Counted from the first letter of the stretch, positions 3,087-51,050 are shown. The stretch: DNA of 64,000 nucleotides from Dictyostelium discoideum (GCA_000004695.1 CM000151.3:6336001-6400000); one strand, 5' to 3'. Numbers and translations: made by a program. The notes: a model not told the origin generated them from the sequence alone.

Positions 3087-5665
<2,579 letters not shown>

Positions 5666-6029
5666 TTTTTAAAAAAAAAAAAAAAAAAAATTGCGACAAC
5701 AATGGTTGTAATAAATTTAGTAATGACATCATTTCTAAAATATTTAGAAAGGATTTCTAAGCATCTAAATTTACAATTAATATAAGTTGATTATAGAAAA
5801 ATCAATTTATATTTAAAAAAAAAAAATAATAAAAAATAAATAATAAAAAAAAAAAAAAAAAAAAAAAATTTATTTGTATGATTTATATTTGTTATAAAAT
5901 ATTATATTATTATTTTTATTATTAGATTTTTTACATTACCTGAATGAATTTTCAAACCACATGTTTGTTATTTTTTTTTTTTTAAAATATTATATGGAAT
6001 CAATTTTAGAAAAAAAAAAAACTTTTATC

Positions 6030-6064
<35 letters not shown>

Positions 6065-6810
6065 TTATTTTTTTTTTTTTTTTTTTTAAATCAAAAAATC
6101 TATTTTTAGAGTTTTTTATTAAAAACTATAAAAAGGATTCTTGTTTTAATACTAAAAATAGAGATCATTTGGATGAAAACCAGATTTTTTTTTTTTTAAA
6201 AATAAAAATTGCTCAATTTTATTTGTACCACTGCATTGATGAAAACTGTGTGAAAATTATAATTTTTCTAAACACTTATTTATTTTTTATTTTATTTTTT
6301 TTTATTTTTATTTTTATTTTTATTTTTTTTTTTTTTTCAATTAAAATTTTTTTATTGAAAAAAACCCACAGAGGGGTGGGTGGAAACAATAAAAAAAATA
6401 AAAATAAAAAAAGTGAACAACAATAACCCAATCAATTTGTAAAATAATAAATAATTTATTAATTATAATAAATTTGTATTATCATATACAACATATGTGT
6501 TAAGATGTAGAGCGAATTTAATTTTTTTTTTATATTTTATTATTATTTTCATAATAAAAACAATTTAATTTTTATTATTATTTATTTTTATTATTATTAT
6601 TTAATTTATTTTTATTTTAATTTTTATTTTTTATTTTTATTTTTATTTTTATTTTTATTTTTATTTTTTATTTTTTTTTTATTAATTTTTTTTTTATTTA
6701 TTCAATAAATTTAAATTTGATATGATAATTAGTTAATCGTAATATTATAATATTTACATATAAAAGAAAAAAAGAAAAAAATTAATTAAAATAATTGAAA
6801 AATAAAAAAA

Positions 6811-9121
6811 ATGTCATTTAACATACCCACAATTCATACAAATAACTCCAAAAACGATAATAATGATGAAAATAATAATAATAATCAACACACAGAAAAT
6901 CCATACATTTCAATAAATAATAAAATCACCCCAGAAAATAGTATCTCATCAAATCTTAATCAAATCGAGAAAGCTGTTAAAGTTGCCAATTCTCAAAACC
7001 TTGATTTAGCATTGATTGGTAATTGCTCATTTGGTGCTCTTATTGATAAGAAATCATGCATCAAATGGTGTTGCATTCCAAGATTTGATGCAGATCCAAT
7101 ATTTTGCTCATTAGTTAGAAAATCAAATGATTCAGGTAAATTTACAAATATTCTAAAAAAAAAAAAAATAAAAAAAAAAAAAAAAAATAATAATCCATTC
7201 TAACTCTATTATTTTTTTTTTATTTTTATTTATTATTACAGGTTTTTATGATGTTGTGGTTGAAAACTTTGCATTCAGTGAGCAGGTATATATAAAAAAC
7301 ACAGCGGTTTTATCAACAAAACTGTACAACACTAATGGAGGTGGTGTTGAAGTAATTGATTTTGCACCAAGATTCAATATGTTCTCTCGTCCATACAGAC
7401 CATCAATGATTATTAGAGTCATTAAGCCATTGGGCCATTGTAGAATTAAGATTAGACTAAGACCAACATTCGGGTAAATTTTTAAAAAATAACTTAATTT
7501 TCTATAATTTTTTTTTTTATAAATTATATTTCCTTTTCAAAAATATATTAACTTTTTTTTTTTCTTTTTTTTTTATATTTTTATTTAATAGTTATGGATG
7601 GGGTGCACCAGAAAAAACCAGAGGTACAAACCATATAAGATATATATTACCATCAATGGTAATGAGACTTACAACCAATGCTCCAATTTCATATATTGTT
7701 GATGAAGTTTTATTTGAAGCTGATGAAACATTATACTTTGTATTTATGGCTGATGAAAGTTTAAGAGAATCCCTTCATGATGTTACCAATACTTATTTGG
7801 ATAAAACAATTGAATATTGGCAAGAATATACTAAATCATTAGCTGTATGTAATATAATAATTTATTTTTAAAGTTTTAACAATTTTATTATTAATTTTTT
7901 TTTTTTTTTATTTTTTAAAAAAAATAGATTCCACTTGAATGGCAATCACAAGTTTTAAGAGCATGTATTACTGTAAAACTTTGCCAATTTGAAGAATCTG
8001 GTGCCATTATTGCATCATTAACAACATCAATCCCAGAAGAACCAACTAAAGAAGGTTATGATCTTAGATTTTGTTGGATTAGAGATACTTCTTATATTGT
8101 ACATACATTCAACAAACTTGGTAATACAAAGATGATGGAAGATTTCCTTACTTACATTTCAAACATTGTCTCAGGTTCATTGGAAAGAGGTGGATTCCTT
8201 CAACCAGTTTATGGTATTTCATTAGAAACAAAACTCTATGAAAAGTCAATGTATAGACTTGCAGGTTACAGAGGTCTTGGTCCTGTTAAAATTGGTACAA
8301 GAGATTATAAAACAATTCAAAATGATGTTTATGGTCAATTAATTTTAGCATCTATTCAAATGTTTTTTGATCAAAGATTAAATAAACCAGGTGATATTCA
8401 GTAGGTAATTTAATTATTTTAAAATAATAATATTGGTTACTAAATTTTTTTTTTTAAAATAAAAGTTTATTCCATAAATTAGAAGGTTTAGGTATGCAAG
8501 CATATACAAATTATAATAAACCAGATTGTGGTCCATTAGGTAAAGGTTCAATTGAAGATGGTAAAATTTATACATTTTCATCATTTATGTGTTGGACAGG
8601 TTGTGATAGATTAGCAAAGATTGCAAAGAGTTTAAAGATTCCATTACGTGCACATTTCTGGCAAGAATCTGCAAATAAAATCAAGGAAGAAATGATGGAA
8701 CGTTGCTTCAACAAGGAAAAGAATTCATTTGTATCAACTTGGGATGGAGATGATGTTGATCCTTACCTTTTATTGATTGCAGAATCTGGATTCACTAAAA
8801 TTGATGATCCAAAATTCATTGGAACCGTTGAATATTTAGAGAAAAAACTTAGAAGAGGCAAATACATTATTCAATCACCAGACAGTGTTAGTGCATCAAC
8901 TACATTCACTCTCTACTATATTTCTTGTATTGCTAAAATGGGTAGAAAAGAAGAAGCAAGAGAACTTTTTGAAAATATCCTTAATGATTGCACTCCATTG
9001 GGTTTAATTAGTCAAGATGTTAACCTTGAAACCAAAGAAATTTGGGGTAACTTTCCAAAAACAACTTCAATGGTTGGTATAATTAATGCTGCTATTTGTT
9101 TAAGTAAACCATGGGAATCTG

Positions 9122-9129
<8 letters not shown>
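6811..9129 (+). CDS. Glycoside hydrolase family 15 (glucoamylase/trehalase-like) protein, 5 exons (6811..7135, 7242..7473, 7592..7844, 7928..8400, 8466..9129)
   Basis: The reading frame is continuous across four short AT-rich introns. Donors are GTAAAT, GTAAAT, GTATGT and GTAGGT; acceptors are acag/atag/atag/aaag. The motifs GAIIASLTTSIPE and GYDLRFCWIRDTSY match the GH15 'TTSLPE' and 'WDYRYCWLRD' signatures of bacterial and archaeal glucoamylase-like enzymes. Splice phases were checked by hand. Confidence 0.6.
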
Positions 9130-9164
<35 letters not shown>

Positions 9165-9318
9165 AACAAATTCCATTATTTTTCATTTTCCAATTTTTCA
9201 TTATCTTTAGATATATAATTAAAATATTTTTTTTTTAGTATTAATCAAATAAATAAACAAAACAAAATTTAAAATTTAATACTATTTAATTTTTTTTTAT
9301 TATTATATATGTTGTATT

Positions 9319-12300
9319 TTATTTTAAACCACCTGAAGTAATAGCAATCCAAATTGGTAATATTGTAGTTTTAAATTTAATTTCAATTTCTACATGAGAA
9401 CCATTAGTTTTCTTATTTGATATAAAAGCTATTTTGTTATTTGAAATTGATACTTCATTTGAAAAGGTTGAACCATTAAATCCACTAGTGTCAAGTAAAA
9501 ATTGATATGAATTACCTTGGTATTCAACTTTGAAATTACATATTGATGTATTAATTGATATTGGGTGAGAAGACTCTACCGAAGTCCAACTTGTTCCAAA
9601 ATTTTTGTGAATATTGAGTTGAGTAGAATGAGATTTAATATTTACTGCATGCATAGCCTTAAAGAAATTAAATGATGGATTTGGTGGATCTCTAAATTTA
9701 ACTAAAGGATGTTTATTGTTAAAGAATAATTCAAAGGTTTTACCACCTTGAGGAGCACCACCAATCTTAATATTGAATAATTCCATACCACCAATCGAGT
9801 ATCTTAAAGCTGGTTCGAATGAATTAACTTTTTCATGACGTGATGTTAAATTTTGAGGTTCAATAAAGAAAAATGGAATACCACTTGGTGATCTAATCTT
9901 TAAAAGTGTTTTACTTGAATCTAATAATTTTGAATAAGATTGAAATGTGAGCTTTGAGCATTTCATTAAATCTAACTTTATTAATCTTAGTTTTGAAATT
10001 GATTCTGAAACAATTAAATTATCAACAAATGGTGGTAATGCTAATTTAACAACCGATGGACATCCTTTATAAAGTTCATTAAAATCTTCTCCTAAGATAC
10101 CACTACAACCACCTAAATCCAATACCTCTAAATCTTTACAAGTTGAAGCAATAAGTTTAACTATTAAATCTGTAAGTGTTGGTATTTCATAAAGTTTTAA
10201 TTTTCTTAACTTTGGAGTGATTAAATCTGATAATACCCATTCATTGATTCCATTTTGATTATTACCAAAATTGAGATAGGTAATATTTGATAGATTAGAT
10301 AAACTTTTCAATTTACTACAATCATTAATTTTTAATTTTCTTGAAATAAATGATTGAATATCTGGTTTAATCTTTGAAAAAACTTCAATACTATTACTAT
10401 TGATATGTTCATCGAAATAAATCTTTTCAACATTTATATTTTCAAAGTAATCTAAATCCTCTACTTCAAATTGAATATTTAAAGGAATTGTAAACTTTTC
10501 TTTTTTAATTGAGTATTTTTCTTCCAATGAATTCTTTACAATTGATCTTAATTTTGGAACAGTTCTAGAGGTTTCAAAAAATATCCATGGACTAAAATCA
10601 ATTAATGGTTTAATTTTATCAATAATTGATTCAATATTTTTACTAATACTAAATGCTTTAGTAATATGTTCTGATACTTTTTCTTTTGAAAAATTTTTAT
10701 TACTACCTTGAGTTACCAATAAAAATAATGAAATACCAATATGAGCTTTTTGATAATTTGGATCAATTTTAAATATATTACTAAATTAAAAAAAATGAAT
10801 TAGTTTTTTATAAAAATAATAATAATAATAATAAAAATAAAAATTAAAATAAAATAATTTACTTACTTATAAGCAGTTAAAACTTTAGAGTAATCAAATT
10901 TTGAATTATATTTATATAAATGATCAAAGAATTTTGCCAAAAGGTAACTTGGATATGCTTTATCTGGTGATTGTTCAATAATTTCATTTAAAACTATTTC
11001 AATTTCTTCAATTTCTTTAGGAAGAATAAATCCTTCAAACTTTAAATGTGATAGAATAGTTTTAACTCTACAAATTTTTAAAAGAAGTACTTGACTTTGA
11101 ACAACTCCAATTGTATCAAATGTAGAGAGTTTTTTGTTTGCCAACACATAGTAGAGTTGTTTCTTTGTATAATCTTGTGAAGTTTTTGCCAACAAAGTTA
11201 AAACTTTAGCCAATTGGATAACAATTTGGAAATTATTATTCATGGTGAGAATTGATTGCTCTAAACGTTCCCTTGAAATTGTTAATAGTCTATGTTTACT
11301 TGTATCACTTAAACCTGAAGCCATAGATTTATAATATAAACTCATACCATCTGCATAATCAATAACATTTAATCTAGTTGAAAGAGTTTTAATCTCTTTA
11401 ATATCTGTATCTACAAATACGAATGAATCAGAATTATTAAATTGAGAAATTGCAATTTTACTAATTACCAAACCAATTGATTTACAAAATTTTTTTAAAA
11501 TCATTTCTCTGGTTGGAAGAGTTGTCAATAAATTTTTAATAATTTCTTGTGGAGTAACTGGTAATTTTGGTGAATTTTCATTTAACTCTGGCTCTTCTTT
11601 TTCGGTATTTACATTATTGAAAATATTTTGAAATTTCTTTTCCATCTTTTCTAATATAATTTTATTCCAAATATATTCAGTTTTATCTTTATATTCATCA
11701 AATAATAAATTTAAAAATTTTAATAATAAACCTAAATTGAAATAATAATAATATTAATATTAATAATAATAAAATAAAGAGAATTAATAAATTTTATTAT
11801 ATAATAATTTAAAAATTATTAATTATTATTATGTTTTTTTTTTACTTACTTCTATATGGATAATCAGATGGTAAATGAATATTTCTCATTTCTCTTCTTA
11901 ATAATTCTCTTGCTAAACTTTTAAGTGTTCTAACTATTGCTTCAATTGTAAAGAATCTTTTATAACCAATACTTGTACAATGACTTGCAACTTCACCAAT
12001 ATATCTAATATTAATACCTTCAGCATGAAGTAATTTTGAAACATCTGTAATCTTGTCAGAAATATTTGATAGTAAATCTTGTAAAAAATTTGTTTTTAAA
12101 CCAATTTCATCTCTAGTTTGAATATCTTTAGAGAATTTTGGAATGATATTATTCATTAAATCATCATATGCCTCTTGAACTTCCACATTATGTTTATTTG
12201 AATCAATTGTTGACATTGGCGAAAATGCATCACTACATAATGGTTTTTGATATTTTCTAACCAATTCTAGTCTTAATAGTTTATAAAGATATGAACCACG

Positions 12301-13860
12301 ATGTTTTGGTGGTTCTGGTGGTGATAATCTTGCGAAATCTAATAAATAGAAACGATTATCACCTCCTAAATGACCCTCAATATCAATTGGCCCACTGATT
12401 GATTTAATATCACCACTGATATCTTCTACAAAATGTTGTTTTAAATTGATAACTTTTGAAGCATTTAAAAAGAGATTATTGAAAATATTATTACTTGTGT
12501 GTACAGTTTGACCAGCGTCACAACTACCATAAATTAAACTTTTCTTTGAAATTGGTAATAATGACATTGCCATCAACCGGAAGCCTCTATAATCGATAAA
12601 TGCCATCAATGGTACATGTAAACCTTTGACACCACAATTTAAAAATGAAGCACAACCATTTAATTCATGTGCTGCTGTTTTCATTGCATTCTCATCATTG
12701 CCATATAATCCAAATGCTTCATTCTCCAACGCAAATTTGAATAATATACCTTGAACGATATACTTTTCACCACCAGCAATACCTCCGACACTAACTGGTT
12801 TAATTGTTTTCAATTCATTGGCCAAGAAATTCTCAGAGATAATAATTCTACCATAACTTTCAGCTGCATAAACAAAATCATGCTCTAATGAACTAAGTCT
12901 TTCAAATTTCTCTAAACAATCATCCATTTCTAATAATCTTTGAAATTCTGAACTCCAATAATATAATGCTATATTATCCATCTTTTTCCCAGTAATTGAA
13001 CTACCGCTACTACCACTGCTAAAACTTGAAGAAGCATTTGATACATTTAAATTATCATTTGTAAGGAATTTTGGATGTGAATAAGATGAATATGGATTGG
13101 ATTTAATATTATCATCTAAATATCCACTTTGTAATACTTGTAATCTTTGTCCAGATGGTGATGATGATGATGATGATGATAATGTTGTTGATATATCACT
13201 AATATTATTGTTATTTTCATTTTTTGGTAGTTCTAAAACTTTATTGTATCTTACTAATGATTCTAATACTAATAAATCATTTTCACTAATATCATGCATA
13301 AAATAAGGCTTTTTTAAATCAATATCATGATTATCTTCATTTCCACCACTATTAGTAGTTTTACTACCATAAATTGAATATGGATCACTACTTTGACTAT
13401 CTTGAACATTACAAATTCCATAAATTGATTCACTTTGATCGCTACCTTTATAACTATAAAAATTACTTTCACTTGATGAAAAGTCTTGTGTAGAATTTGA
13501 AGTGTTATCATATCTTGCTTTATTTGATGAAAATGAATCTGATATAGTTGGTGAAGCATTATCATATCTATTATTTGATTGTGTTGTTAAAGAAGAGGAT
13601 GATGAAACTGATTCTGATTTAATATCGTCTTTATTAAAATTATCATATCTTGATGATGAAGAAGATGATGATGATTGAACAATATTTGGTGAAGCATTAT
13701 CATATCTATTATTTGGTTGTTGTTGTTGTGTTATTGGCTGCACATTATCATATTTTTGTCTTAAAATATCTGGTGAGACCTTTAATCTTAATAATCTTTG
13801 CGAAAGGGCATTTTCTTTTTCTCCCAAGTATGAAAAAACTTCATTATAATCATAGCCCAT
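9319..13860 (-). CDS. CLU-domain plus Cys-containing LRR protein, paralog B, 3 exons (13860..11850, 11731..10867, 10780..9319), about 1445 aa
   Basis: The three track ORFs (11842..13860, 10863..11645, 9319..10719) join through GTAAGT donors and ..tttag acceptors. The joined protein is collinear with the intronless paralog at 14255..19144. For example, DYPYRS-LLLKFLNLLFDEY..EKMEKKFQNIF aligns with DYPYRNLLLNFLNLIFDDY..EKMEKKFQNIF, and TAYN-NIFKIDPNYQKAHIGIS aligns with TIFTIDPNYQKAHIGIS. The central region (DYRGFRLMAMSLLPI..YGSCDAGQTV..GGDNRFYLLDFARLSPPEPP) resembles the CLU domain. The C-terminus has LDLGGCSGILGEDFNELYKGCPS LRR_cc-type repeats. Exon lengths sum to 4338 nt, which is divisible by 3. 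Confidence 0.6.
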
Positions 13861-14254
13861 TTTGTTTGGATTTGTTTTTTTTTTTTTTTAGTAATAATAC
13901 AGAAAAAAAGATTTTTTTTTTTTTTTTTTGTGTTGTGTAAAAAAATGATTTATTGATAACAAAAAAAAAAAAAAACTAATCTCTTTAATAGTTTTTTTTT
14001 TCTTTTTTTTTTTTTCTATTTGCTATTTTTTAAAATTAATTGAAACAATGGAAATAAAAAAGAAAAAACATCATTTTGAAATATCTTTTTTTTTTTTTTT
14101 TTTTTGATTTTTTTTTTTTTTTTTTAGATATTTTTTAAAAACGTTGTTTTGGTTGCCTTTCTGTGAAAAAAGTAAATTTTATTTTTAATTTTTTTTAATT
14201 TTTTTTTTTTTTTTTTAACCAATTTTAATTTTAATTTTATTTTTAAAAATTTTA

Positions 14255-17200
14255 TTAATTTTGGATACCTGTGGCAATTGCAAAGAAAATTGCAAATGGA
14301 GAAATGATTTTACTAGTTTTAATATCAGCATCAACACTTAATCTCATAGTTTTTGCATTTGAAACGGTTAAGACAGCATTTAAATTTGATCCAATTGAAA
14401 CATTTGAAGTGAAAGTAATACCTTGAAGACCAGATTGAGCGATATTTTTAAATTGATAAGAGATACCTTGAGATTCGATTTTAGTTGCAAAAGTTGGTGA
14501 ACTTGACATTGGTAAAGTTTGAGTGGATTCAATAGTTCTCCAATTTCCATTCATAGTGATATCATTGTAAACTGTTAATTTTGTAATTGGTTTATCAATG
14601 ATATTGACATGAGCAACTTTAAAGAAACCTGAAGAATTGAGTAAAGCATTTGGTGGATTTCTAAATCTTACCAATGGATTCTTATTATTATAAAATAGTT
14701 CAAAATTTCTACCTGAAGAAACCATTATACCATGACCAATCTTCAAATAGAATAATTCCATACCACCAACTGAATATCTTAAACATGGTTCATTTGGAGC
14801 TACTTTAGCATGACGAGCTGTAATATATTGTTGGTCAAGATAGAACATTGGTACACCAATTGGATTTCTAACTTTTTTGAGTGTACTACAAATATCTAAT
14901 GCTTTTGAGTATGAATGATGAGTAACTTTTGAACATTTAATTAAATCCAATCTAACCAATGGTAAAGTACCATTTAAAATCTCTGAAACACCATCATTCT
15001 CTATGAATGGTGGTAATGCTAATTTAGCAATTGATGGACAACCTTTATAAAGTTCATTAAAATCTTCTCCTAAAATACCACTACAACCACCTAAATCCAA
15101 TACTTCTAATTCTTTACAAGTTGATGAAATTAATTTAACTGTTTTATCTGTAATATCTGGTAATTCATATAATTTTAATTTCTTTAATATTGGTGTAATT
15201 AAATTTTCAATCATTTCATCTTTAACACCTTTTGAAAAACCTAAATTTAATTTTATAATATTTCTAAATTTACTTAAACTTTCAAAAATTTTAAATTCAT
15301 TTTCATTATTATTATTATTTTCCTCTTCTTTTACTTCTTTTTCTTCTTGATTATTTTCTTCTTCTTCTTCTTTTTCTTCCTCTTTTTCTTCTTCTTCTTC
15401 TTTAATTTTACTAAATTTACTAAATCTAATTATAATTGATTGTGAATTTGATTGAATTTTTGAGAAAACTTCAATATTTTTAGCATTTGAATGATCATCA
15501 AAATAAATCTTTTCTAATTTAATATTTTCAAAATAATATTGATCATTAAATTCAAAATGAAGATCATGTGGAATTAAAAGTTTATTATTATTTTTTTCAA
15601 CTTTTAATTCTAATGCACTCTTTACCATTGATCTAACTTTTGGAATTGATCTTGATGATTCAAAAACTACCCATGGATTAAAATCAACTAATGGTTTAAT
15701 TTTGTTTACAATTGATTCAATATTACCAACTTTGAATGCTTTTACTATATGATCAGAAACTTTTTCAGGTGAAAATAGTTTATGAAGATGTTGAGTTTTT
15801 AATAAAAATATTGAAATACCAATATGAGCTTTTTGATAATTTGGATCAATTGTGAAAATCGTATCATAAACATCGGTAATCTTTGAATAGTCATACTCTG
15901 CTGAACTACCTTTTGAACAAATGAAATAGAATTTTGCTAAAAGATAATTTGGATAAGCTTTATTTGGTGATAGTTCTATTGTATCCTTTATGATTTGTTC
16001 AATTTTTTCAATTTTTTCTGCTTGGAAGTATTGAATTCTTAAATGTGATAATGAAATTTTAATTCTTTGAATTCTTGAAATTAATAAAAGATTTTGATCA
16101 ATTCTTAATTGTTCCAATTGAGAAACTGTATTTTCAGCCAATGTGAATAGTTCTCTTTTAATATTATCATTATCAGTGGTTTTAGCTAATAAACGAATAA
16201 CATTTGCCAATTGAAACATTGCATTATGATTGGTACTCATTGAATGAATTGATTCCTCTAAACGATCCTTTGAAATTGTTAATAGTCTGTTCTTACTTTT
16301 ACTATTTAAACCAGTTGCCATTGATTTATAATATAAACTCATACCATCTGCATAATCAATGATATTTAATCTTGAAACTAATGTATTGATTGCTTTGATA
16401 TCTGGATCAACGAATACGAATGATGATGACTTTGAAAATTGTTCAAGTGAAACTTTGCTAAGTACAAGACCAATTGATTTACAGAATTTAGTTAAAATCT
16501 TTGATCTTGTATATGGACTTAATAATAAATCTTTAATCAACTCTTGAGGTGAATATTTGAAATTTTGAGGATCCTCAACAAAATCATTTGGAATTGAATT
16601 GAATCTACTAAATGATTCTTTATCTTTATAGGAATCAACGAAAGGATTTATAAATTTCTCTTCGAAATGGGTTGCTTTATTGACGAAAATATTTTGAAAT
16701 TTCTTTTCCATCTTTTCAAAAACAATTTTTGACCAAAATAATTCAGTTTTACCTTTATAATCATCAAATATTAAATTTAAGAAATTTAATAATAAATTTC
16801 TATATGGATAATCAGATGGTAAATGAGTTTTCTTCATTTCTCTTCTTAATAATTCTCTTGCTAAACTTTTAAGTGTTCTAACTATTGCTTCAATTGTAAA
16901 GAATCTTTTATAACCAATACTTGTACAATGACTTGCAACTTCACCAATATATCTAACATTAATACCTTCAGCATGAAGTAACTTTGAAATATCTTTAATT
17001 TTATTATTAGCTTGTCTTAGAATTTCAACTGATGAATTTGTTTGGAAACAAATTTCATCTCTAGTTTGAATAAATTTAGAGAATTTTGGAATGATATTAT
17101 TGATTAAATCATCATATGCTTCTTGAACTTCTACATTATGCATATCAATATCAATACTTGACATTGGCGAAAATGCATCACTACATAATGGTTTTTGATA

Positions 17201-27147: not shown

Positions 27148-28450
27148 ACTACTTAAATTGGAAGAGGGTTCGGAACTGCTGGGGTTTGCCAGGCTTTGTT
27201 GAATTTGTATTTGTGAAGATCTTGATTGGTGTTTTTTAGACATATCAAAATACAACAGAACTGAGAGAATCTTCCCCAATCTCATAGGAATAATAGCACA
27301 CCAATTATGGAAGATAATCTGTCACAAATTGTTCAACACTGATGAAAGCAAACCAGAGCCAAAATTCGAACAAAAGGTCATAGAAACAGAATTACTAAAT
27401 CTCATAAAAAAAAAATTATAAAAAAACACCAATCAAGATCTTCACAAATACAAATTCAAAGCCTGGCAAACCCCAGCAGTTCCGAACCCTTGGTATCCAT
27501 TGACCATCTGTGGATTTTGATGAATGATAATTTGTTAACTGTTGATATGATGGTTTTTTCAATATCTAGGATATCTTGGCATAGAGTGAAGAGGTGAGAA
27601 TAAGGGTCTCTGAATAGATGGCCACAGATCTTGCATCTGGTGTCTCTTTCGTGGTTGATACCTGGAAGTGATCTTGAGAAGAATCTGAAGAGGGTGTTTC
27701 TACCTTTTTGGTGAGAAATGCTGTTGATGTTTATGAATACTTTGGGTATTGCTGTGTTGTATCTCACCGCCCATAACTTCTGCCATTCTGTTCTTCTTGG
27801 TGTTGGGTGTCTGTCTTTGATCATGAGTTCGTAGATTTCTTTCAGTTTTAGTGGTTCGTCATTGTCGTTTCTTATACAGTCTGGAAGTTCATTTATCTTT
27901 GGATGGTTTTGGTAAAATTTGACTCTGAATACACCCCAGTGTCTGCACATATCGTTGAGGGTTGAAGTGTGGGCTTTTTTTCTACTTAATTGCTCCATGT
28001 ACCATTCTTGTAAAGTATTGTTGTTGTTGTTGTAGTTGTTATGGAGTAGCCTGTTCATGTACCAGATTTTGAATGCTATATGTCTTAGTTCTATATCCCA
28101 TAATTTTATGCCTCCTTCTTTCCAATCTGCATATGCTCTGTCTATTTTCATCATAGTTTTGTATTTTCTCTCTTCTGTATATGTATTCTTAACTGAGGAG
28201 AATAAGAACCATCTGGTCATGTTATTGATTTCCTCAATTTGTTCTTCATTTAGATTATCCATGTATTGATGGTATGTTAATTTGGATAGAACGTATGTTT
28301 TGAGAATTGTCATCTTTGCCTTCATCGTTATTGCTTGTGATTTCCATTTGATAAGATTGTTTTTCATTTCTTGGATTAAAGTGTTGTATTTTGAATTTAA
28401 ACCTGTTTTGGTGAAATTGAGGCCAAGATATAAAAAACTTTTAAAATAAT
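27107..28450 (-). mobile_element. TRE3-like non-LTR retrotransposon, 5'-truncated fragment with a rearranged 3' end; oligo(A) tail seen as poly(T) at 27107..27146
   Basis: A minus-strand ORF carries the ORF2 C-terminal CCHC-like motif CKICGHLFRDPYSHLFTLC. It is homologous to the plus-strand fragment at 43479..44045. The poly(T) run marks the 3' end. The fragment lies about 70 bp downstream of tRNA-Gln on the same strand. Confidence 0.6.
27456..28367 (-). pseudogene. TRE3-like ORF2 C-terminal fragment (303 aa). The reading frame runs into an inverted-repeat copy and terminates.
   Basis: ..HQKGRNTLFRFFSRSLPGINHERDTRCKICGHLFRDPYSHLFTLCQDIL..HRWSMDTKGS is followed by ELLGFARL*, which is encoded by the 77-bp inverted repeat. 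The expected continuation (LDISK..IGIIAHQLWKIICHKLF) is found on the opposite strand at 27238..27420. Confidence 0.55.
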
Positions 28451-28518
28451 ATAAAACAATTTAAAAAACTGATTCGAGTATTTCCGGAACTTCGGATTTT
28501 GATATAAATACTAAAAAG

Positions 28519-28591
28519 TGGTTCTACTGAGACTCGAACTCAGATTACAGGATTCAAAGTCCTGGGTGCTAACCAATTACACTATAAAACC
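28519..28591 (-). tRNA. tRNA-Gln (anticodon UUG)
   Basis: The reverse complement is GGTTTTATAGTGTAATTGGTtAGCACCCAGGACTTTGAATCCTGTAATCTGAGTTCGAGTCTCAGTAGAACCA. It folds into a 7-bp acceptor stem with one G-U pair. The anticodon stem is CAGGA/TCCTG with loop CTTTGAA (anticodon TTG). The T-loop is GTTCGAG. Confidence 0.75.
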
Positions 28592-28898
28592 TTATGATTT
28601 TCAATATTTTAAAAATAAGACATCGTTTAATTTTCACAAAAAAACAAACAACAACAACAATCTCTTTTTTTGATTATTTCATTTTTCATATAAAAAAGAC
28701 TTAAAAAACAAATAAATAAATAAATAAACTATTTTAAAAAGCCATCTTTTTACTTTATTGTAATTTATTATTTGTTTCGTTTTGAGAATTTTGCGTAGCA
28801 AAATTTTCAAAAAAAAAGCAAAAAATAATCAGATCGAAAAAAACAAACAACAACAACAATCTCTTTTTTTGATTATTTCATTTTTCATATAAAAAAGA

Positions 28899-28978
<80 letters not shown>

Positions 28979-29053
28979 GGAACCAAGTTAATTAGAAAAT
29001 TTCCAGATTTTTAACTTTTTAAAGAAAAATAAAAAAGATAGAAAGAAAATAAA

Positions 29054-30388
29054 ATGAAAATCACAAACAACACCACAAATATTAAGCAACACAAATGCCT
29101 ACAAAAAATAAGCGAAATTGTGGATAAAACTCAATTAAAAAAAAAACAATTCAAATACGTCATAAACATCAATCACGAACCAGACGATAAAATAAAAAAA
29201 GATTTAGAAAAAAGTTTGGACAAAAAAGATGTTTTAATCAAAAGTAATAATACATTCAAAATTCTCACAGACAGTATTAGTACAGTAATCTATTTTGTAA
29301 ATATGTTTGATGCAGAATTAAAAGGACAATTTATAACCACTATAAGACCAAAAAATATGTATACAGATTTTGATTGGTATAAATCACTCACAGAAATAGA
29401 ATGGGTAATAGAAAATGAAGGATGTAAACTAATTAAATCAGAAATTAAAGGCGAAACTCTAATTATCAAAACAGTGAAAAGAGTCGTAGAAGAATTTGAC
29501 ACTATCATTGAACTAGACAATCTAACATTAATTGGACACTCCAACAAAGGATGGAGAGATCAAACCTCATTACCAGAAAATCAAGAAGAAAACAAAAATA
29601 AAAAACAATCAGATGAACAACAACCACAATCTACATCAGAACAAATACCAAAACAAGGAAAAAGAACAATCATTATCCCACCAATCACATCCTCATCTAA
29701 TGATAAAACATTTATGGCCCTAGATGATACAGCTCAAAAGGTAATAGAAGCATCACTAGAAAACGTAGATGAACTAACAAGAATAGAGAATGAGATCAAT
29801 ACACAATCGATAAACAATCAAGAAATTAAAACAAAATCAGAAAAACCTATCGAACCACCATCTCCATACAATACACCAATAAAACAACACGGCGAAACAA
29901 AGGGACTAACAACGGAAGAAAAACTTAGAGAGGCAAATGATATCTTCGACTTCACCAGCCCAAACACTGATGCAATAAGAAAAATAGAATTCCCACTTTC
30001 AATCCCTTCAAATCAATGGTTCTTCTCCTCTCCAATAAAACATATCATGAGTTTCAGCCCAACCTATGGTACACCATCGAAAATTATCGATTCACCAAGT
30101 AAATTGTTAAACACACCAAAAAAGAAACAACAAGACAAAACAAACAAGACCAACAAAACACCAGTCAAACCAAAATTGGGTGAATATGGACAAAAAAGCA
30201 TAAAAACAAAAATGGATGAAGATATAGACAACTTCAACAAGGAAATTCTAAAACAAATCAATAAATCAAAAAACCCCACAAACACACAAGACCAACAACA
30301 CAACGAACAAAGTAAAGATCAGTTAGAAGACAAAATAAACCAGAAACTTCAAAAGGTAGATAAAAATCTACCCCAAATAAAACTATAA
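29054..30388 (+). CDS. TRE5-like retrotransposon ORF1 (444 aa)
   Basis: The domain order is shared with TRE5-A ORF1 (48158..49522). NNTFKILTDSISTVIYFVNMFDAELKG..IRPKNMYTDFDWYKS aligns with KNKFKILTDCRTQVIKYSNVFNGVLKG..IKPKKIFKTFNWEKS. A basic, Q/K-rich C-terminal half follows. Confidence 0.55.
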   Translation: MKITNNTTNIKQHKCLQKISEIVDKTQLKKKQFKYVININHEPDDKIKKDLEKSLDKKDVLIKSNNTFKILTDSISTVIYFVNMFDAELKGQFITTIRPKNMYTDFDWYKSLTEIEWVIENEGCKLIKSEIKGETLIIKTVKRVVEEFDTIIELDNLTLIGHSNKGWRDQTSLPENQEENKNKKQSDEQQPQSTSEQIPKQGKRTIIIPPITSSSNDKTFMALDDTAQKVIEASLENVDELTRIENEINTQSINNQEIKTKSEKPIEPPSPYNTPIKQHGETKGLTTEEKLREANDIFDFTSPNTDAIRKIEFPLSIPSNQWFFSSPIKHIMSFSPTYGTPSKIIDSPSKLLNTPKKKQQDKTNKTNKTPVKPKLGEYGQKSIKTKMDEDIDNFNKEILKQINKSKNPTNTQDQQHNEQSKDQLEDKINQKLQKVDKNLPQIKL

Positions 30389-30389
30389 A

Positions 30390-30640
30390 GAAAAACACAA
30401 TAAGAATAGGTGTTTGGAACGTCCAAGGATCCAACACCATCCAATCTGCCAGCATAATAAACACCGTTTTAGACAACAACAAGCTGGACGCAGCACTTCT
30501 AACTGAAACAAATATAAAAACAAATAAAATTTACTCAATAAATCAACAATATAAAAACAAAATAACACACCACGCACCAATTGATAAAACAGGACAAGGG
30601 GTGTCACAAATCATCATCAACACCCGCAATAGAACTTCCT
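30390..30640 (+). pseudogene. Truncated ORF2 N-terminus (APE-type endonuclease) of the TRE5-like element
   Basis: RIGVWNVQGSNTIQSASIINTVLDNNKLDAALLTETNIK..APIDKTGQGVSQIIIN parallels the TRE5-A ORF2 N-terminus MTWNCQGCSTIKS..ISILTETNLK. The reading frame ends after about 85 codons and runs into poly(A) at 30686..30740. Confidence 0.5.
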
Positions 30641-30684
30641 AAACATCTCAAAAAATACAATAATTCACTCAGTACTTTCTATAA

Positions 30685-30742
<58 letters not shown>

Positions 30743-31654
30743 CAAGTTAATCAGAAAAATAAAAAAGATAGAAAGAAAATAAAATGAAAATCACAAACAA
30801 CACCACAAATATTAAGCAACACAAATGCCTACAAAAAATAAGCGAAATTGTGGATAAAACTCAATTAAAAAAAAAACAATTCAAATACGTCATAAACTTC
30901 AATCACGAACCAGACGATAAAATAAAAAAAGATTTAGAAAAAAGTTTGGACAAAAAAGATGTTTTAATCAAAAAGACCCTGTAAAAAAAAAAAAAAAATA
31001 AAATGAGATCTAGCATCTCAAGGAGAAGCAAATAATAATTGCGTTATCCAATTCAAAAAAAAAAAAATCGTTTAATTTTCAAATTTTTTAAAATAAATTT
31101 ATAGAATTGATTGGAATTATTTGAATATGCAGAAGTAAAATTTAAAAGAGACTTCAATCTTAGACCCAAATAAAAGGTTGTACAATATATCTATTGTACT
31201 TTTTTCATGATGATATTTAATAGTTAAACCGGTTTATATATTAAGTATTAAGAAATTTTTTTTTTATTTATTTTTTTATTTTTTTTGGGTTGAATAAAAA
31301 TAAAAGTTCTTTTGGTAATTAAAAAGGTTATTAATAGTCTTAATTATTGAATTTTTTAATGTTGGGCAAATTTTAAATATTTTACAAAAAAAAAAAATTT
31401 AAAATATTTTTTTTTTTTTTTTAAAAAACTTTTCTTTGATTTGTTAAATTATTAGAAATTTTTTGATTTGTTTGATAATATTTTTTTTTTTTTTTTTTTT
31501 AAAAAATAGATATTTTAACAAATCAAAAAAAATCTCGCAAAAGAAGCCCAAATTTTAAAGATAAAAAAAAAAAAAAAAAATTTATTTTTAAAATTTTTTT
31601 TTTTTTTTTTATTTTGTAAAAAATTCTAAAAATAAATAGAAATATATAAATAGA

Positions 31655-44365: not shown

Positions 44366-44425
44366 CTTTTTTTTTTTTTTTAATAACATCACTCAATTTG
44401 AGTGTGTTCTAGGAGAGTTTATTTG

Positions 44426-44459
<34 letters not shown>

Positions 44460-44582
44460 CTTTTTTTCTTGTTATTCTTATTTTTTTTTTTTTTATTATT
44501 ATTATATTATTATTATTATTATTATATTATTATTATTATATTATTATTATTATTATATTATTATTATTATTATTATTGTTAT

Positions 44583-44616
<34 letters not shown>

Positions 44617-44621
<5 letters not shown>

Positions 44622-47600
44622 AGTAGTTGGTGTTATATGAGCAGTATGGTATGAAGTGTTCCGGGATTTTTATGGTCATGAGTTTCGAGTTCCAGTTGTG
44701 GCTGAATTTTTCGAGTCTTCTTTTTATTGATGCGGTCCGATTGATTGACTCTCGGTTATCAGTGCATCTTAGTTCTTGACGTAGTTGTTTTTCTACTATC
44801 TTTCTTGTTCTATCCCATTCGGCATCTCTCGCTTTTTTTATTTTATGAATTATTTGGTTCTCTGTTATTATTGTAGTGTTATCGTTGAATTTTATTTGAT
44901 TTCTTCTGTACCATATCGATTCCATAATGGCTCCTATCAGATTTGATGAGAATGGTGTGAGTAGTTTTCCGAGAACTTTTTCGCTCCATGGACCGTGGTA
45001 AGTGTTGTTGGAGTCTTTACAGACCTTTTGATAGATTGAGTCGATATTCTGTTTTATTGATTTGCATTCGAAGAAGATGTGCATAGACGATTCTTCTTCT
45101 TTACATGAGTGGCAATTCTCCCCATGGTGTTTTGGAAGTGCCTTGAGTAGATATCTCCATGCTAAGTCTCTTCCTTTGATAGTTGTGATTGATCTGGCTT
45201 CTCTAAATGGTAGAATTGGGTGATTAATGTTCTTTTGAATCAGTTTTTGACCTGTTGTTGGCTGGTGTTTGTTCCATCCCTTGTATTTGATATCCATCAT
45301 GTTTCTATAGATTACTTTTAATTTTTGTTTGTTTTCGTATTTGGGTTTGACTTGGTTTAGTTTGAGAGTTATTCGCTCTCTTGGGTGGTGCAACAACTTC
45401 CAGGCTTTCCAGCATTTGATGTGAATCCTTGATAGTGAGTTTTCTTTTTCCGACTTCCAGACTTCCATATGTGGAGGGCAGTTCTGGTCGTCTTTTTCTC
45501 TGAGGTATTGTTCGTATATCCATGCTTTCTGGGCATTGGATCTGGTTGCCATATTCCAGAGTTCCAGGCCTCCAATTTCATAGTCTCTTCTGCTCCTTTC
45601 TTTTGAGATAGCCCACCTGTCCCCTTTGAATAACATGTTGGCATTAACGTTCTCCAGTTTCTTTATGTCATTTATTTCGTTGATGTATAGTTGGAATGTT
45701 AGTTGGGACAGCAGGTATGATTTGAGGATTGTGATTCTACCTTTTAGCGTTGATGACACGCTCGAATAGCATTTTGTGAGGTTTTCCAGTTTGTTCACCG
45801 TATCATCTACTTTGCTTATTACACCTTTGCGGTTGAAGAAAAAGCCAAGATATCTTTCTTCTTCTTTCGCCCCAATTGTCTTATATTTGGTCTTTATCTT
45901 TGGGTTTTTAGTGATGCACACACATTTATTATCGTTTATTTTTGCTGCTGTGGCTTGGCAAAATTTTATAACTTTCATATCCATTTTATCTGCGTCATCT
46001 ATGTTACTGGCTAGTGTGACTGTGTCGTCTGCATATTGTCCAATCTTCATCGAATTGTTCTGATTGAGTTTTATGCCTATTATGGTATTGTCTTTTCTTA
46101 TTGATGTTGATAAGCATTCACATACTATAGCGAAGAGAGTTGGTGAAATTGGGTCGCCCTGTTTTGTACCTCTTCCTGCTCTGAAGGATTCAGAGAGTTG
46201 TCCATTTACCATGACCCTTATGTTGGTGTTCGTTAACATGCTTAGTATTGTGTTTGTTATTTTCCGAGGGAACTTTAGATGGTTTAGAGTCCTTATTAAC
46301 GCTTTATGAGATATTGAATCGAAGGCTTTTTCGAAGTCATAAAAGGTGATTATCGTGTTTCTATCACTCTTTTCCATTGCTAAATCCAAAGCTATAATGT
46401 TGTTGTGGAGTAGCCTTCCTGGTATAAAACCGTTCTGGTACTTTGAGATTATGTTTGGCAGGATTTTTAGTATTCTATTGTTGATTATTTTTGAGTAGAT
46501 TTTGTAGTCTACGTTGAGTAACGTTATTGGTCTTCTGTTTGAGATTTCCAAGACATCCCCTTTACCTTTGTATATTGATGTAAGGATACCGTTCTTGAAT
46601 TCTGTTGGAATTTCATTGTTTAAAAAGAAGTTGAATAGTTCTGTGAGGATTGGAATTAGTTTGTGTTGGTGGATTTTATAGAATGAAGATGTTATTCCAT
46701 CTTCTCCTGGTGATTTACCTTCTGCTATCTTTTCTATTGCTAGCTTAACCTCATATTCTTCGATTCTGTCTTCCATCTCTGTTAATTTTTTTTTATCTAT
46801 TGGTGGGTTCCAGGTGCTTAGAAGTTCTGTATGTGTTTCTTGGTCGCATTCTTTCTCTTTGAAGAGTGTCTCGTAATATTTTCTGAAGCAATCTGTTATT
46901 TCTTTTTGTTCTGTTTCGATTTCTCCATTGGATGGGTTCTTTATTCTGTGAATCTGGGAGCTCGAGTCTCTTTTTTTAAGAATAGATGTAAGGAGATTTG
47001 ATGCTATTTCTTTATTGTTGATGTAGTTGATTGAGCTTTTGATCATTCTGTCTATTCTTTCTTCTTCTTGAAGTATTGTTATTTCGTTCGATATTGTTTC
47101 TTTTTCATATTTGTTTTTTGTTTTTGTGTGTTCATTTGCTAGATTTGATAGCGTTTTTTTTCTCTCTAGTATTCTTTTCTTTTCTGTTGTAATGCATTGT
47201 TTTTTTATTTTTTTTTTGAACTTAATCCAGTATTCCGTTATGTTAAGGTTTTTTCTTTTGGTTTCCTGGTAGTGGTCGATTATTTTTTCTATCTTTTTTA
47301 TTGTTTTATCTTCTTTAATTATTATTGAGTTCATTTTCCATAGGGGTGATTTGTATATTTTTGTGAAATTTGGTATTTTGAAATCCATCACTACTATGTT
47401 ATGGTCTGATTTGTTTATTTTATCTATTATCTTGTACGAGTGATTGAGTTGGTGCATCTTTGTTGATAAGAATGTTCTATCGATTAGTTTATCTTTGAAG
47501 GTTGTTTTAGTTGTTGAATTTGGTAGTATTTCGGTGAGTCCTACTTCCATCATTAGGAATTCTATTGTTTCATTTTCTGTGAATTTTCTCTTATCGGATG

Positions 47601-48048
47601 ATCCATCTTTGAACTTGATTTTTGCATATTTGTTGATGTTAAAGTCACCAGTAACTATGTCTGCCTGTTCTAGATCTTCAAGGGAAATATTGTTTGAAAA
47701 CCATCCTTTTCTTCTGTCATATGAGGCTGGTGCATAGATGCAAATTATGTTGATTTCCATATTGTTTAGAATTGCAGTAAATTTTAAGATTCTGCCTTCT
47801 TTTTCTTCCAAGTTTTTAATTTCTATTTGTTCTAGGTGATTTATTGCCATTACTCCTTTTCCTCTTGCTTCTTTTCCTTTTCCTCCTGTTGAGTAATGGT
47901 TTTTGATTTGCGCTAGATTTTGATCCTTTTTTAGATTTGTTTCTGTTAGTATTGATATATCAGGTTTTATTAGGTTAATTGTATTTTTTGTCTGATTCAT
48001 GCTTTTGATTGTTGAGCAACCTTGGCAATTCCAGGTCATTATTTTTAT

Positions 48049-48051
<3 letters not shown>
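44617..48051 (-). CDS. TRE5-A ORF2: APE endonuclease, reverse transcriptase and C-terminal Cys-His motif. The ATG is at 48051..48049; the track ORF extends to 48165 through a poly-K reading of the A-tract.
   Basis: The N-terminus MIKIMTWNCQGCSTIKS.. is an endonuclease domain. The RT motifs ..ITFYDFEKAFDSISH.. and ..QYADDTVTLA.. (YxDD) are present. The C-terminus has the CCHC-like motif HSCKEEESSMHIFFECK. Total 1182 aa as listed in the track. Confidence 0.75.
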
Positions 48052-48098
<47 letters not shown>

Positions 48099-48125
48099 TT
48101 TTTTTTTTTTTTTTTTTTTTTTTTT

Positions 48126-48157
<32 letters not shown>

Positions 48158-48163
<6 letters not shown>

Positions 48164-49522
48164 AAATGAGACAGATGGAAGTATGTCTTGGAGTACTTTG
48201 GGCAATTTGTCTCTTAGTGCTGCTTCCATTAGATCTGATTCTTCCTTTGTTATTTTAGTTGGAGTTTTGTAAGGTGTTGATATTTCTTGGTGATTAGTTG
48301 TTGGGTTTGGAGATGAGTTGGATCTTTTTCTTTTTACTGTCTCTGGGGTTGCTGGAGATTCTGGATTTTGGATAGGTGACATTGTTTGTCTTTTTTTGAT
48401 TGAGGCTAACCTTGGGGTTTCCTTCTTTTTTTGGTTATTTATTTTTTCTTCAAAAATTCTGTTCTCTTCTTCATTTTCGAACATCTTTCTTACCACTTCT
48501 AATGCTTCTTCATCTTCAGTTAACTCCATTTTCCTTTTCTCTTTGCTGTCAACACTATATGTTACTGTTATTGGTGGGACACGAAGTACTTTTCTCTTTT
48601 CAATATTGTTTATTGTGTTTGTCGTTTCTGTCGTTGTGGTTGTTGTAGTTGCTCTAATTGTTGTGGGTTTTTTATTTTCAATTTCGTTTTCCTTTACTTT
48701 TTCGTTTTTGCTCTTGTCTTTGATGTTGTCATTATTGATTTCTTTATTATTTTCTTTTCTGTTTTCTATTTTGTTTTTGTTGTTATTTTTTGATTCGCTA
48801 GTGTTTTTATGATTGGATTCTTCTTTTGATTTTATGTTTATTCTTGTGTTTTCCTTTATCTCGGGATTTGGTAGTTCCGTGATTTTTGAATTTTCTGAGA
48901 TTTCGTCTTCGATTTCCTTATTTGTTTTTCTTTGATTTTTTGTTTCTTCTGTTGTAGTGAGGAATAGTATTGTTATGTGTTTACAATGTATTAGCTGGTC
49001 TTTGTGCTCTGGACTGATAATTGAGTTGAATGAGTGTATTATCAGGTTTTCACCTAAATTATCTAATTTGATTATTTCCAGTCCTTCTTCATGCAATGTT
49101 TTTTCTACTATGTCCATTGATTTTTCCCAGTTGAATGTTTTGAAGATCTTTTTTGGTTTTATTATTGCTCTGTGAACTCCTTTTAGTACTCCGTTGAAAA
49201 CGTTAGAGTACTTGATTACTTGAGTTCTGCAGTCAGTTAGGATTTTGAATTTATTCTTACTTATTATTATCTTATCATCTCCTTGTAAATGAATTTCCAA
49301 TTCTGCTTTTAAGTTGTTGGAAATCTCATCTGGGATATTGATCATGAATTTATATTGTTTTAGTTCAATTTGAGTGTGGTATATTGCTTCGCTTATTTTA
49401 TCAAGTGTTCTGTACGTATTTTTTAAATATTTGAACTTTGTTCTGAGTTCATTTGATTTCTTGATTTTATCTGCCAATGTTTCTGTTGATTCTGTCATTA
49501 TTGTATTTGCCAATTTATTCAT
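48158..49522 (-). CDS. TRE5-A ORF1 (454 aa)
   Basis: A complete ORF. It overlaps the track ORF2 start by 8 nt and is followed by a T-rich stretch (A-rich on the element strand) of about 105 nt at 48052..48157. Confidence 0.7.
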
Positions 49523-49599
49523 TTCTTTTTTTTCTTTAAAATCTTTATTCGACTTTAAAAATTTAAAATTCTGGAAATTCCCTGAAAGAATGTTTTCGG

Positions 49600-49670
<71 letters not shown>

Positions 49671-49674
<4 letters not shown>

Positions 49675-50928
49675 TCTTTTTTTTATATGAAAAATGAAAT
49701 AATCAAATAAAAAAAGTGTTGTTGTTGATGTTTTTTCTCTTACTGATTATTTTTTCCTTTTTTTTTCAATTTTGCTTCGCAAAATTTTCAAAAAAAAGAA
49801 AAAAATAAATTACAATAAAATAAAGAAATAAAGTAGTTTATTCTAAGTGTATTTTATTTTATTTTTTTTAAGTCTTTTTTTTATATGAAAAATGAAATAA
49901 TCAAATAAAAAAAGTGTTGTTGTTGATGTTTTTTCTCTTACTGATTATTTTTTCCTTTTTTTTTCAATTTTGCTTCGCAAAATTTTCAAAAAAAAGAAAA
50001 AAATAAATTACAATAAAATAAAGAAATAAAGTAGTTTATTCTAAGTGTATTTTATTTTATTTTTTTTAAGTCTTTTTTTTATATGAAAAATGAAATAATC
50101 AAATAAAAAAAGTGTTGTTGTTGATGTTTTTTCTCTTACTGATTATTTTTTCCTTTTTTTTTCAATTTTGCTTCGCAAAATTTTCAAAAAAAAGAAAAAA
50201 ATAAATTACAATAAAATAAAGAAATAAAGTAGTTTATTCTAAGTGTATTTTATTTTATTTTTTTTAAGTCTTTTTTTTATATGAAAAATGAAATAATCAA
50301 ATAAAAAAAGTGTTGTTGTTGATGTTTTTTCTCTTACTGATTATTTTTTCCTTTTTTTTTCAATTTTGCTTCGCAAAATTTTCAAAAAAAAGAAAAAAAT
50401 AAATTACAATAAAATAAAGAAATAAAGTAGTTTATTCTAAGTGTATTTTATTTTATTTTTTTTAAGTCTTTTTTTTATATGAAAAATGAAATAATCAAAT
50501 AAAAAAAGTGTTGTTGTTGATGTTTTTTCTCTTACTGATTATTTTTTCCTTTTTTTTTCAATTTTGCTTCGCAAAATTTTCAAAAAAAAGAAAAAAATAA
50601 ATTACAATAAAATAAAGAAATAAAGTAGTTTATTCTAAGTGTATTTTATTTTATTTTTTTTAAGTCTTTTTTTTATATGAAAAATGAAATAATCAAATAA
50701 AAAAAGTGTTGTTGTTGATGTTTTTTCTCTTACTGATTATTTTTTCCTTTTTTTTTCAATTTTGCTTCGCAAAATTTTCAAAAAAAAGAAAAAAATAAAT
50801 TACAATAAAATAAAGAAATAAAGTAGTTTATTCTAAGTGTATTTTATTTTATTTTTTTTAAGTCTTTTTTTTATATGAAAAATGAAATAATCAAATAAAA
50901 AAAGTGTTGTTGTTGATGTTTTTCCTCT
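49671..50928 (-). repeat. TRE5-A A-module tandem array: 6 complete 198-bp units plus one 70-bp partial unit (about 6.35 copies)
   Basis: The unit start taagtctttttttt recurs at 49671, 49869, 50067, 50265, 50463, 50661 and 50859. Units are nearly identical. The last unit diverges after gatgtttttcctctt at about 50928. Confidence 0.85.
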
Positions 50929-50976
50929 TCTATTGTTCCTTAATAAATTTGTAATATGAGTTATTTTTTCATCAAA

Positions 50977-51050
50977 GGGACTATAGTTTAGTTGGATATA
51001 ACGACCGGCTACGAACCGGTAGGTCTCAGGTTCGACCCCTGATGGTCTCG
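50977..51050 (+). tRNA. tRNA-Arg (anticodon ACG)
   Basis: The sequence is GGGACTATAGTTTAGTTGGATATAACGACCGGCTACGAACCGGTAGGTCTCAGGTTCGACCCCTGATGGTCTCG. The acceptor stem GGGACTA/TGGTCTC has 2 G-U pairs. The anticodon stem is ACCGG/CCGGT with loop CTACGAA. The T-arm is TCAGG-TTCGACC-CCTGA. Confidence 0.7.

Follow-up and report, generated by a model that had tools for sequence, protein, structure and literature searches.

A 2.4-kb block upstream of a Dictyostelium discoideum tRNA-Gln gene has the architecture of the non-autonomous retrotransposon TRE5-A.2

[quoted passage not shown] The full-length form, TRE5-A.1, has the structure AB-ORF1/ORF2-BC. Its A-module of 200 bp is the plus-strand promoter, its B-module of 290 bp, where ORF1 begins, occurs a second time in the 3' UTR, and its C-module of ~134–137 bp defines the 3' end and forms a hairpin that is essential for retrotransposition (PMC3159450). 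TRE5-A.2, with the structure AB-ORF1-BC (AB-ORF1-deltaORF2-BC), carries a large deletion in ORF2, and a further BC deletion of 72 bp has reduced its C-module to the 3'-terminal 87 bp (PMC3159450). The ORF1 protein acts mainly in cis (PMC3159450) and, according to the literature, binds TFIIIB subunits; the literature also describes TRE5-A.2 as about as active as TRE5-A.1, using the TRE5-A.1 ORF2 protein in trans. Experimental evidence for mobilisation of TRE5-A.2 in trans is credited to Beck et al. (2002) in PMC5633606. Duplication of the B-module is absent from two related families: TRE5-B does not have it and has no C-module to define its 3' end, and TRE5-C, likewise without a 3' B-module, carries a C-module that is only 78% identical to that of TRE5-A. 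Both families were reportedly defined in the paper by Glöckner et al. from 2001.

We analysed a window of 64 kb from the D. discoideum genome (the whole stretch of DNA under study), in which a 2.4-kb block lies next to a tRNA-Gln gene (Table 1). The block is almost certainly one complete insertion of TRE5-A.2, which is known as a non-autonomous derivative of TRE5-A. Its parts follow each other in the order A-module(s), A-run, B-module with the ORF1 start, ORF1, ORF2 stub, A-run, 3' B-module, shortened C-module and poly(A). An earlier interpretation of the same DNA, here called the sequence-only reading, had rightly seen a TRE5-type non-LTR element within one TSD, upstream of tRNA-Gln and missing nearly all of ORF2. 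All the parts that it listed are present, with minor corrections: two of the A-runs have 54 A and 13 A instead of 55 and 12, the start of ORF2 comprises ~83 codons, and the block ends at 31081, one base beyond the 31080 first given. The structure had been called unusual, but it is the published architecture of TRE5-A.2 (PMC3159450, PMC5391098), and the block is thus already known in kind, a textbook TRE5-A.2 insertion. Published primer sequences, named positions and module lengths are the basis of this identification.

Table 1. Features of the block and its surroundings, in window coordinates, and TSDs of further copies in the genome
Feature	Position	Strand	Basis or remark
tRNA-Gln(UUG) gene, integration target	28518–28591	-	ARAGORN; 5' end faces element
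Left TSD copy, TCGTTTAATTTTCA	28623–28636	+	exact repeat
Extra C and full 199-bp A-module, element 5' end	28637–28836	+	199-bp direct repeat
Partial (0.35) A-module, ends every A-module array	28837–28907	+	sequence comparison
First internal A-run, 67 A	28908–28974	+	between A-module and B-module
5' B-module, 290 bp: leader and first 70 ORF1 codons	28975–29264	+	homology to TRE5-A.1 3' B-module
ORF1, 444 aa, intact (TRE5-A ORF1 protein)	29054–30388	+	translation, AX4 identity, primers
ORF2 5' remnant, ~83 codons of endonuclease N-terminus, up to deletion junction	30376–30625	+	translation
ORF2 3' remnant, last ~60 nt including ORF2 stop codon	30626–30686	+	alignment to L003
Second internal A-run, 54 A	30687–30740	+	between ORF2 stop and 3' B-module
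3' B-module, A.2 version	30741–30973	+	two small internal deletions near start; last 22 nt removed
C-module remnant, 80 nt	~30974–31054	+	aligns to L003 6343–6429
3' poly(A) tail, 13 A	31055–31067	+	sequence; 10–27 A in other copies
Right TSD copy, TCGTTTAATTTTCA	31068–31081	+	exact repeat
TRE5-B-like element	44369–50930	-	~47 bp upstream of tRNA-Arg(ACG), head to head; TSD AAGGAACAATA
Copy at L001			TSD ATTTTATTTATTAT; upstream of tRNA-His
Copy at L002			TSD AAGATTAATCACCAAT; upstream of tRNA-Val(UAC)
Copy at L004			TSD AAGGTGTCATTGAAT; upstream of tRNA-Ser(GCU)
Copy at L005			TSD ATGGTTTCGTACATTC; upstream of tRNA-Val(AAC)
Copy at L006			TSD GTACGTTATTATCTA; upstream of tRNA-Ala(AGC)
Copy at L007			TSD ATATATATAATTTTA; upstream of tRNA-Gly(GCC)
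Copy at L009			TSD ACTATTAGAAATAGG; no tRNA gene detected upstream

The ORF1 of the block contains exact single matches to two PCR primers published for endogenous TRE5-A (PMC5391098 S1 Table), Rep-109Q at 29498–29526 and Rep-190 at 30050–30069, and neither primer matches anywhere in the 64-kb window outside this ORF1. The element is therefore TRE5-A itself and not another subfamily. The ORF1 protein is 99% identical to several proteins of D. discoideum AX4, and exactly the same protein was found at 11 genomic places; exact-protein look-ups for the AX4 homologues P0001–P0003 gave no records. No domain was found with Pfam in this ORF1 or in that of the other TRE5 element of the window. Using the ORF1 protein of the window we also retrieved nine loci from the assembly GCA_054883475.1 (L001–L009), which serve as comparison below. 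Features typical of TRE5-A occur throughout the block, namely the ORF1 sequence, an A-module of ~200 bp, a duplicated 290-bp B-module, a predicted C-module hairpin, and targeting to a tRNA gene with a TSD. Those particular to TRE5-A.2 are likewise present, i.e., a large ORF2 deletion and a deletion at the B/C junction that keeps the end of the C-module.

The 5' end of the block has 1.35 A-modules with a period of 199 bp, one full copy (28638–28836) followed by a partial copy of 71 bp, compared with 2 to 22 A-module starts in other copies. These A-modules are 98–100% identical to those of the TRE5-A copies at L001–L009. The point at which the last A-module is truncated (…GACTTAAAAAA) is common to L003, L009, the locus of the block in the other assembly (L011, GCA_054883475.1) and the TRE5-B-like element of the window. 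An A-run between A-module and B-module was seen in every copy examined (30–41 A in L001–L007), and the run at this position in the block belongs to the common structure of the family and does not represent the tail of an independent insertion. The two internal A-runs differ in length even at the same locus, with 67 and 54 A in the block compared to ~32 and ~33 A in L011. Window positions 28926–29264 correspond to L003 5955–6294, the 3' B-module of a full-length TRE5-A.1; the stretch that this full-length copy has both in its 5' region and in its 3' UTR corresponds to window positions 28975–29264, exactly the published 290 bp.

For comparison with TRE5-A.1 we used the full-length copy at L003 812–6429; a second full-length copy is found at L002 ~9040–14857. 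The block is colinear with the L003 copy in three segments, 28638–30625 with L003 814–2763, 30625–30973 with L003 5897–6272, and 30974–31067 with L003 6343–6442. The ORF2 deletion between the first two segments measures 3,133 bp (L003 2764–5896), with an overlap of 1 nt at the junction. The BC deletion is 70 bp when measured against L003 (6273–6342, a region that includes a variable A-run), as compared to the 72 bp published. The C-module remnant, shorter in the block, has a counterpart of 87 nt in the full-length L003 copy, equal to the published length. Both discrepancies (70 vs. 72 bp and 80 vs. 87 nt) fall in A-runs and in a 5-nt AAATA repeat, all of which are variable among the copies.

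The 3' half of the block had been described in the sequence-only reading as the second of two 5'-retaining, 3'-truncated units, followed by an unrelated 3' tag. Neither description stands. What had been taken for a second leader with ORF1 codons is the 3' B-module, a part that full-length TRE5-A.1 copies likewise carry behind ORF2 (L003 5955–6294 and L002 14382–14722). Within the block, 30753–30973 equals 29023–29243 with one mismatch and gives a 66-codon ORF at 30784–30984. The A-run after the ORF2 stop is present in the full-length L003 copy too and has 32–42 A in other copies. The supposed tag is the C-module remnant, and its end differs from other TRE5-A copies by at most three mismatches in the last 50 nt. 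Counted from its 3' end, the remnant has the published bases at the four positions mutated in PMC3159450 (T15, C26, A35 and C38), and all four lie within two stems predicted for the terminal 54 nt (MFE -11.3 kcal/mol, z = -3.1).

The insertion site agrees with published TRE5-A values in orientation, distance (46 bp) and TSD length (14 bp). The published D. discoideum GlnUUG primer CAGATTACAGGATTCAAAGTCCTG can be read at 28541–28564, within the tRNA-Gln gene, and the element, 2,431 bp long between the two copies of the duplication, stands head to head with this gene, starting 46 bp from its 5' end at 28637. As first noted, identical 14-mers flank the block; TCGTTTAATTTTCA occurs exactly twice in the 64-kb window, also when one mismatch is allowed, and the direct repeat extends to 15 bp if the preceding A is included. 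The TSD is identical at L011.

The search for copies with the same ORF2 truncation point, suggested by the sequence-only reading as the sign of a propagating deleted variant, found the junction at nine other loci. Probes spanning the ORF2 and BC junctions matched in L001–L009 and L011 with at most two mismatches, and the two deletion junctions are identical at all these loci. The composite 28937–31067 was found again at nine other loci with at least 99% identity, and copies differ by 0–3 substitutions over the ~2,060 nt from the B-module start to the end of the C-module. As nine further loci, each with flanks of its own, share both junctions exactly, the deletions are older than the insertion at tRNA-Gln. 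Seven of the other copies (L001, L002, L004–L007 and L009) have their own TSD of 14–16 bp (Table 1), so that an own TSD is seen in 8 of 10 near-identical copies at different loci. Six copies (L001, L002 and L004–L007) lie 46–51 bp upstream of the 5' ends of different tRNA genes. From these sequence comparisons TRE5-A.2 appears to be a recently and repeatedly mobilised family. Tandems of TRE5-A copies are carried by L002, L003 and L008. A TRE5-A-like element at L010 (Dictyostelium cf. discoideum) has a different 3' UTR, and its 5' gene call looks unreliable.

Other histories of the block can be imagined. It could be a one-off composite at the tRNA-Gln locus, formed from an aberrant or prematurely polyadenylated transcript or from two 5'-complete, 3'-truncated RNAs joined through template switching, and belonging to a subfamily other than TRE5-A. 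The single TSD around two A-run-plus-leader units would fit with this, as would an ORF1 that shares only ~25–28% identity with that of the second TRE5 element of the window. With the whole block at least 99% identical at nine other loci and joined in the same way, a second leader after ORF2 in full-length copies, and TRE5-A primers that match the ORF1, such an origin is nevertheless extremely improbable. Alternatively, a full-length TRE5-A.1 might have inserted at tRNA-Gln and lost its ORF2 there. The 1-nt overlap at the junction is compatible with a simple deletion, but identical ORF2 and BC junctions at nine other loci with different flanks make local loss very unlikely. The sequence-only reading had favoured an aberrant transcript of this event or a deletion after insertion, and the shared junctions speak against both.

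TRE5-A is known to re-target occupied tRNA genes and to form tandems (PMC5391098), as in L002, L003 and L008, and several independent insertions, each originally with its own TSD, could in principle have been stacked at this tRNA gene. In L003, a TSD copy of the newer element, GTTTTGTAATTTAA, stands between a full-length copy and an A.2 copy of greater age, and in the L008 tandem a TSD copy likewise lies between the elements. Unlike these tandems, the window holds no third 14-mer even with one mismatch, and the internal junctions of the block are family-wide, not locus-specific, so we give stacking hardly any credence. The two 14-mers themselves might be a chance match in AT-rich DNA; as a control, 25 of 8,758 pairs of 25-nt windows 2,445 bp apart share at least 14 bases (0.3%). 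However, the 14-mer includes C and G bases and is found only twice in 64 kb, its copies directly abut the poly(A) end of the element and its 5' end as defined by homology (where a single additional C precedes the A-module), its length lies inside the published 10–16 bp, and a second assembly shows the same TSD at the locus. Coincidence is therefore a most improbable explanation, and a single TRE5-A.2 insertion remains the reading that we follow.

The other TRE5 element of the window fits TRE5-B, a putative assignment made by published features and exclusion. It has an array of 198-bp A-modules (~6.35 copies) that are 80% identical to those of TRE5-A, and an A-run follows the array. Its ORF1 is 25–28% identical to the TRE5-A ORF1 of the block, close to the published 25% identity between the ORF1s of TRE5-A and TRE5-B (PMC3159450), and for ORF2 the identity to TRE5-A is 42%. 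Global alignment of the two window ORF1s gave 126 identities (z = 14.9 against shuffles), whereas BLASTP with composition adjustment showed no significant similarity between them. In this element neither a 3' B-module nor a C-module was found, and the TRE5-A primer sites Rep-190 and Rep-109Q are absent. The two ORF1s of the window had thus correctly been called distant, but the labels were reversed: the primers identify the block, and not the other element, as TRE5-A. We also considered the block itself as a member of the related families. TRE5-B was ruled out by the 3' B-module, the C-module and the low identity to the TRE5-B-like ORF1, and TRE5-C, compared by its description, was ruled out by the 3' B-module and by a C-module end that closely matches other TRE5-A copies.

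How an element with the identity, anatomy, junctions, targeting geometry and TSD directly observed here came to move can be outlined from published TRE5-A biology. The A-module promoter would drive a plus-strand RNA of the block, and the ORF1 protein made from it would act in cis and contact TFIIIB on the tRNA gene. The ORF2 protein (endonuclease and reverse transcriptase) would be supplied in trans by TRE5-A.1 copies and recognise the C-module hairpin. Target-primed reverse transcription could then insert the copy ~50 bp upstream of the tRNA gene and create the TSD. TRE5-A.2 is, in this outline, presumably mobilised in trans by the TRE5-A.1 ORF2 protein, as the ten near-identical copies at different loci indirectly suggest.

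The A-runs mark the module boundaries of TRE5-A (A-modules/A-run/B-ORF1-ORF2/A-run/B-C/poly(A)). Each of the two B-modules opens with CCTGGGAAC immediately behind its A-run, and the A-module of the TRE5-B-like element is cut before the A-run at the same nucleotide as that of TRE5-A. It is conceivable, though we consider it rather unlikely, that the A-runs are scars of ancient chimeric retrotransposition by which the modular UTRs were put together prior to the divergence of TRE5-A and TRE5-B. Candidate routes would be 3' transduction or end-to-end template jumps, in which copying passes from an RNA's 5' end to the poly(A) tail of a second RNA, and acquisition of the C-module by 3' transduction has already been proposed (PMC4559204). 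This idea concerns the architecture of the family and not the insertion at tRNA-Gln. For annotation, the block should be entered as TRE5-A.2 and the element at 44369–50930 as TRE5-B-like instead of TRE5-A; beyond that the result has little significance. It does call for some caution, as the duplicated B-module and the internal A-runs give a canonical TRE5-A the look of several truncated insertions piled on one another if no reference is used in reading it.

Compared with TRE5-A.1, the A-module, A-run, B-module, ORF1, ORF2 ends, 3' B-module and C-module end all correspond, with 97–99% identity over the common parts. The block lacks three stretches that TRE5-A.1 retains, namely 3,133 bp of ORF2 (with the RVT_1 domain), 70–72 bp where the B- and C-modules meet, and ~34 nt close to the beginning of the 3' B-module. 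Like SINEs and internally deleted LINE derivatives, TRE5-A.2 needs an autonomous partner for reverse transcriptase and endonuclease and retains a 3' recognition structure. Unlike them, it retains a full ORF1 with cis preference (PMC3159450), and its promoter module is of the Pol II and not the Pol III type. With TRE5-A.2 as described, the block agrees in architecture, ORF2 deletion, BC deletion, intact ORF1, position relative to the tRNA gene and TSD length; nothing substantive differs, with small deviations in the extra C before the A-module, the number of A-modules and the lengths of the A-runs.

An ORF of 303 aa lies on the other side of tRNA-Gln(UUG) from the TRE5-A.2 copy, beginning ~100 bp downstream of the 3' end of the tRNA gene; its product shows homology to ORF2 proteins of non-LTR elements, in their C-terminal part. 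L008 and L009, two of the TRE5-A.2 loci (L001–L009) retrieved from GCA_054883475.1 with the ORF1 protein of the window, hold RVT-containing genes to which its sequence identity is 34%; identity to the TRE5-A ORF2 is 27%. The ORF probably represents a 5'-truncated TRE3-type element, and retroelements would therefore flank this tRNA gene on both sides.

The element adjoining tRNA-Arg(ACG), earlier labeled TRE5-A, is better classed as TRE5-B-like. It is full-length and apparently intact, with ~6.35 A-modules in tandem (198-bp unit), an A-run of ~70, an ORF1 of 454 aa that is followed by ~110 nt of A-rich spacer, an ORF2 with RVT_1 and an (ATA)n microsatellite within the 3' UTR. Its target-site duplication, AAGGAACAATA, lies 47 bp upstream of the tRNA gene. 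The extreme 3' end of this element is matched in L001 by CAAATTGAGTGATGTTA followed by A13, found directly past the TRE5-A.2 duplication, and this match probably marks an older, extremely 5'-truncated TRE5-B insertion.

Coordinates of the features in the window and in loci of GCA_054883475.1
Feature	Sequence	Positions	Strand
303-aa ORF	window	27456-28420	minus
A-runs, TRE5-A.2 at tRNA-Gln	window	28908-28974; 30687-30740	
Same A-runs	L011	~3310-3341; ~5054-5086	
TRE5-B-like element	window	44369-50930	minus
tRNA-Arg(ACG)	window	50977-51050	
A-module array variation	L006	2634-6921	
A-module array variation	L001	5226-6921	
A-module array variation	L007	~5223-6921	
GAGATCG 5' end	L003	806-812	
CAAATTGAGTGATGTTA + A13	L001	9018-9045	
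ORF-less short element	L008	9008-9518	
TRE5-A.2 copy	L009	6590-9010	

The A-module arrays vary widely among otherwise near-identical TRE5-A.2 copies, with 2, 3, 9, or 22 module starts per array (the 22-copy array spans ~4.3 kb), and every array terminates with the same 0.35 module followed by the A-run. Several full-length 5' ends (in L003, L005, L006, and L009) open with GAGATCG, whereas internal A-module junctions read CAGATCG, a difference that would be consistent with transcription starting at a defined site and the addition of one 5' G, either cap-derived or non-templated. The 5' end of the copy in the window is shorter by ~7 nt and carries one extra C. Its A-runs of 67 and 54 A are ~32 and ~33 A in L011, the same insertion in GCA_054883475.1, and the two versions otherwise differ by two substitutions. 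Either the homopolymers are truly unstable in length between strains, or the difference is an artefact of assembly or sequencing.

Immediately behind a 5'-truncated TRE5-A.2 copy in L008 is a short element that lacks ORFs and consists only of a partial, rearranged A-module followed by an A-run, a B-module and a full C-module. The duplication ACTTCTGTGAAAT stands on either side of it.

The TRE5-A.2 copy in L009 has a clean 15-bp duplication, and no tRNA gene was found by ARAGORN within 50 bp upstream of it. This copy may instead have targeted an A/B-box site outside tRNA genes, of the kind described for DDT-B and the rDNA palindrome (PMC9012585).
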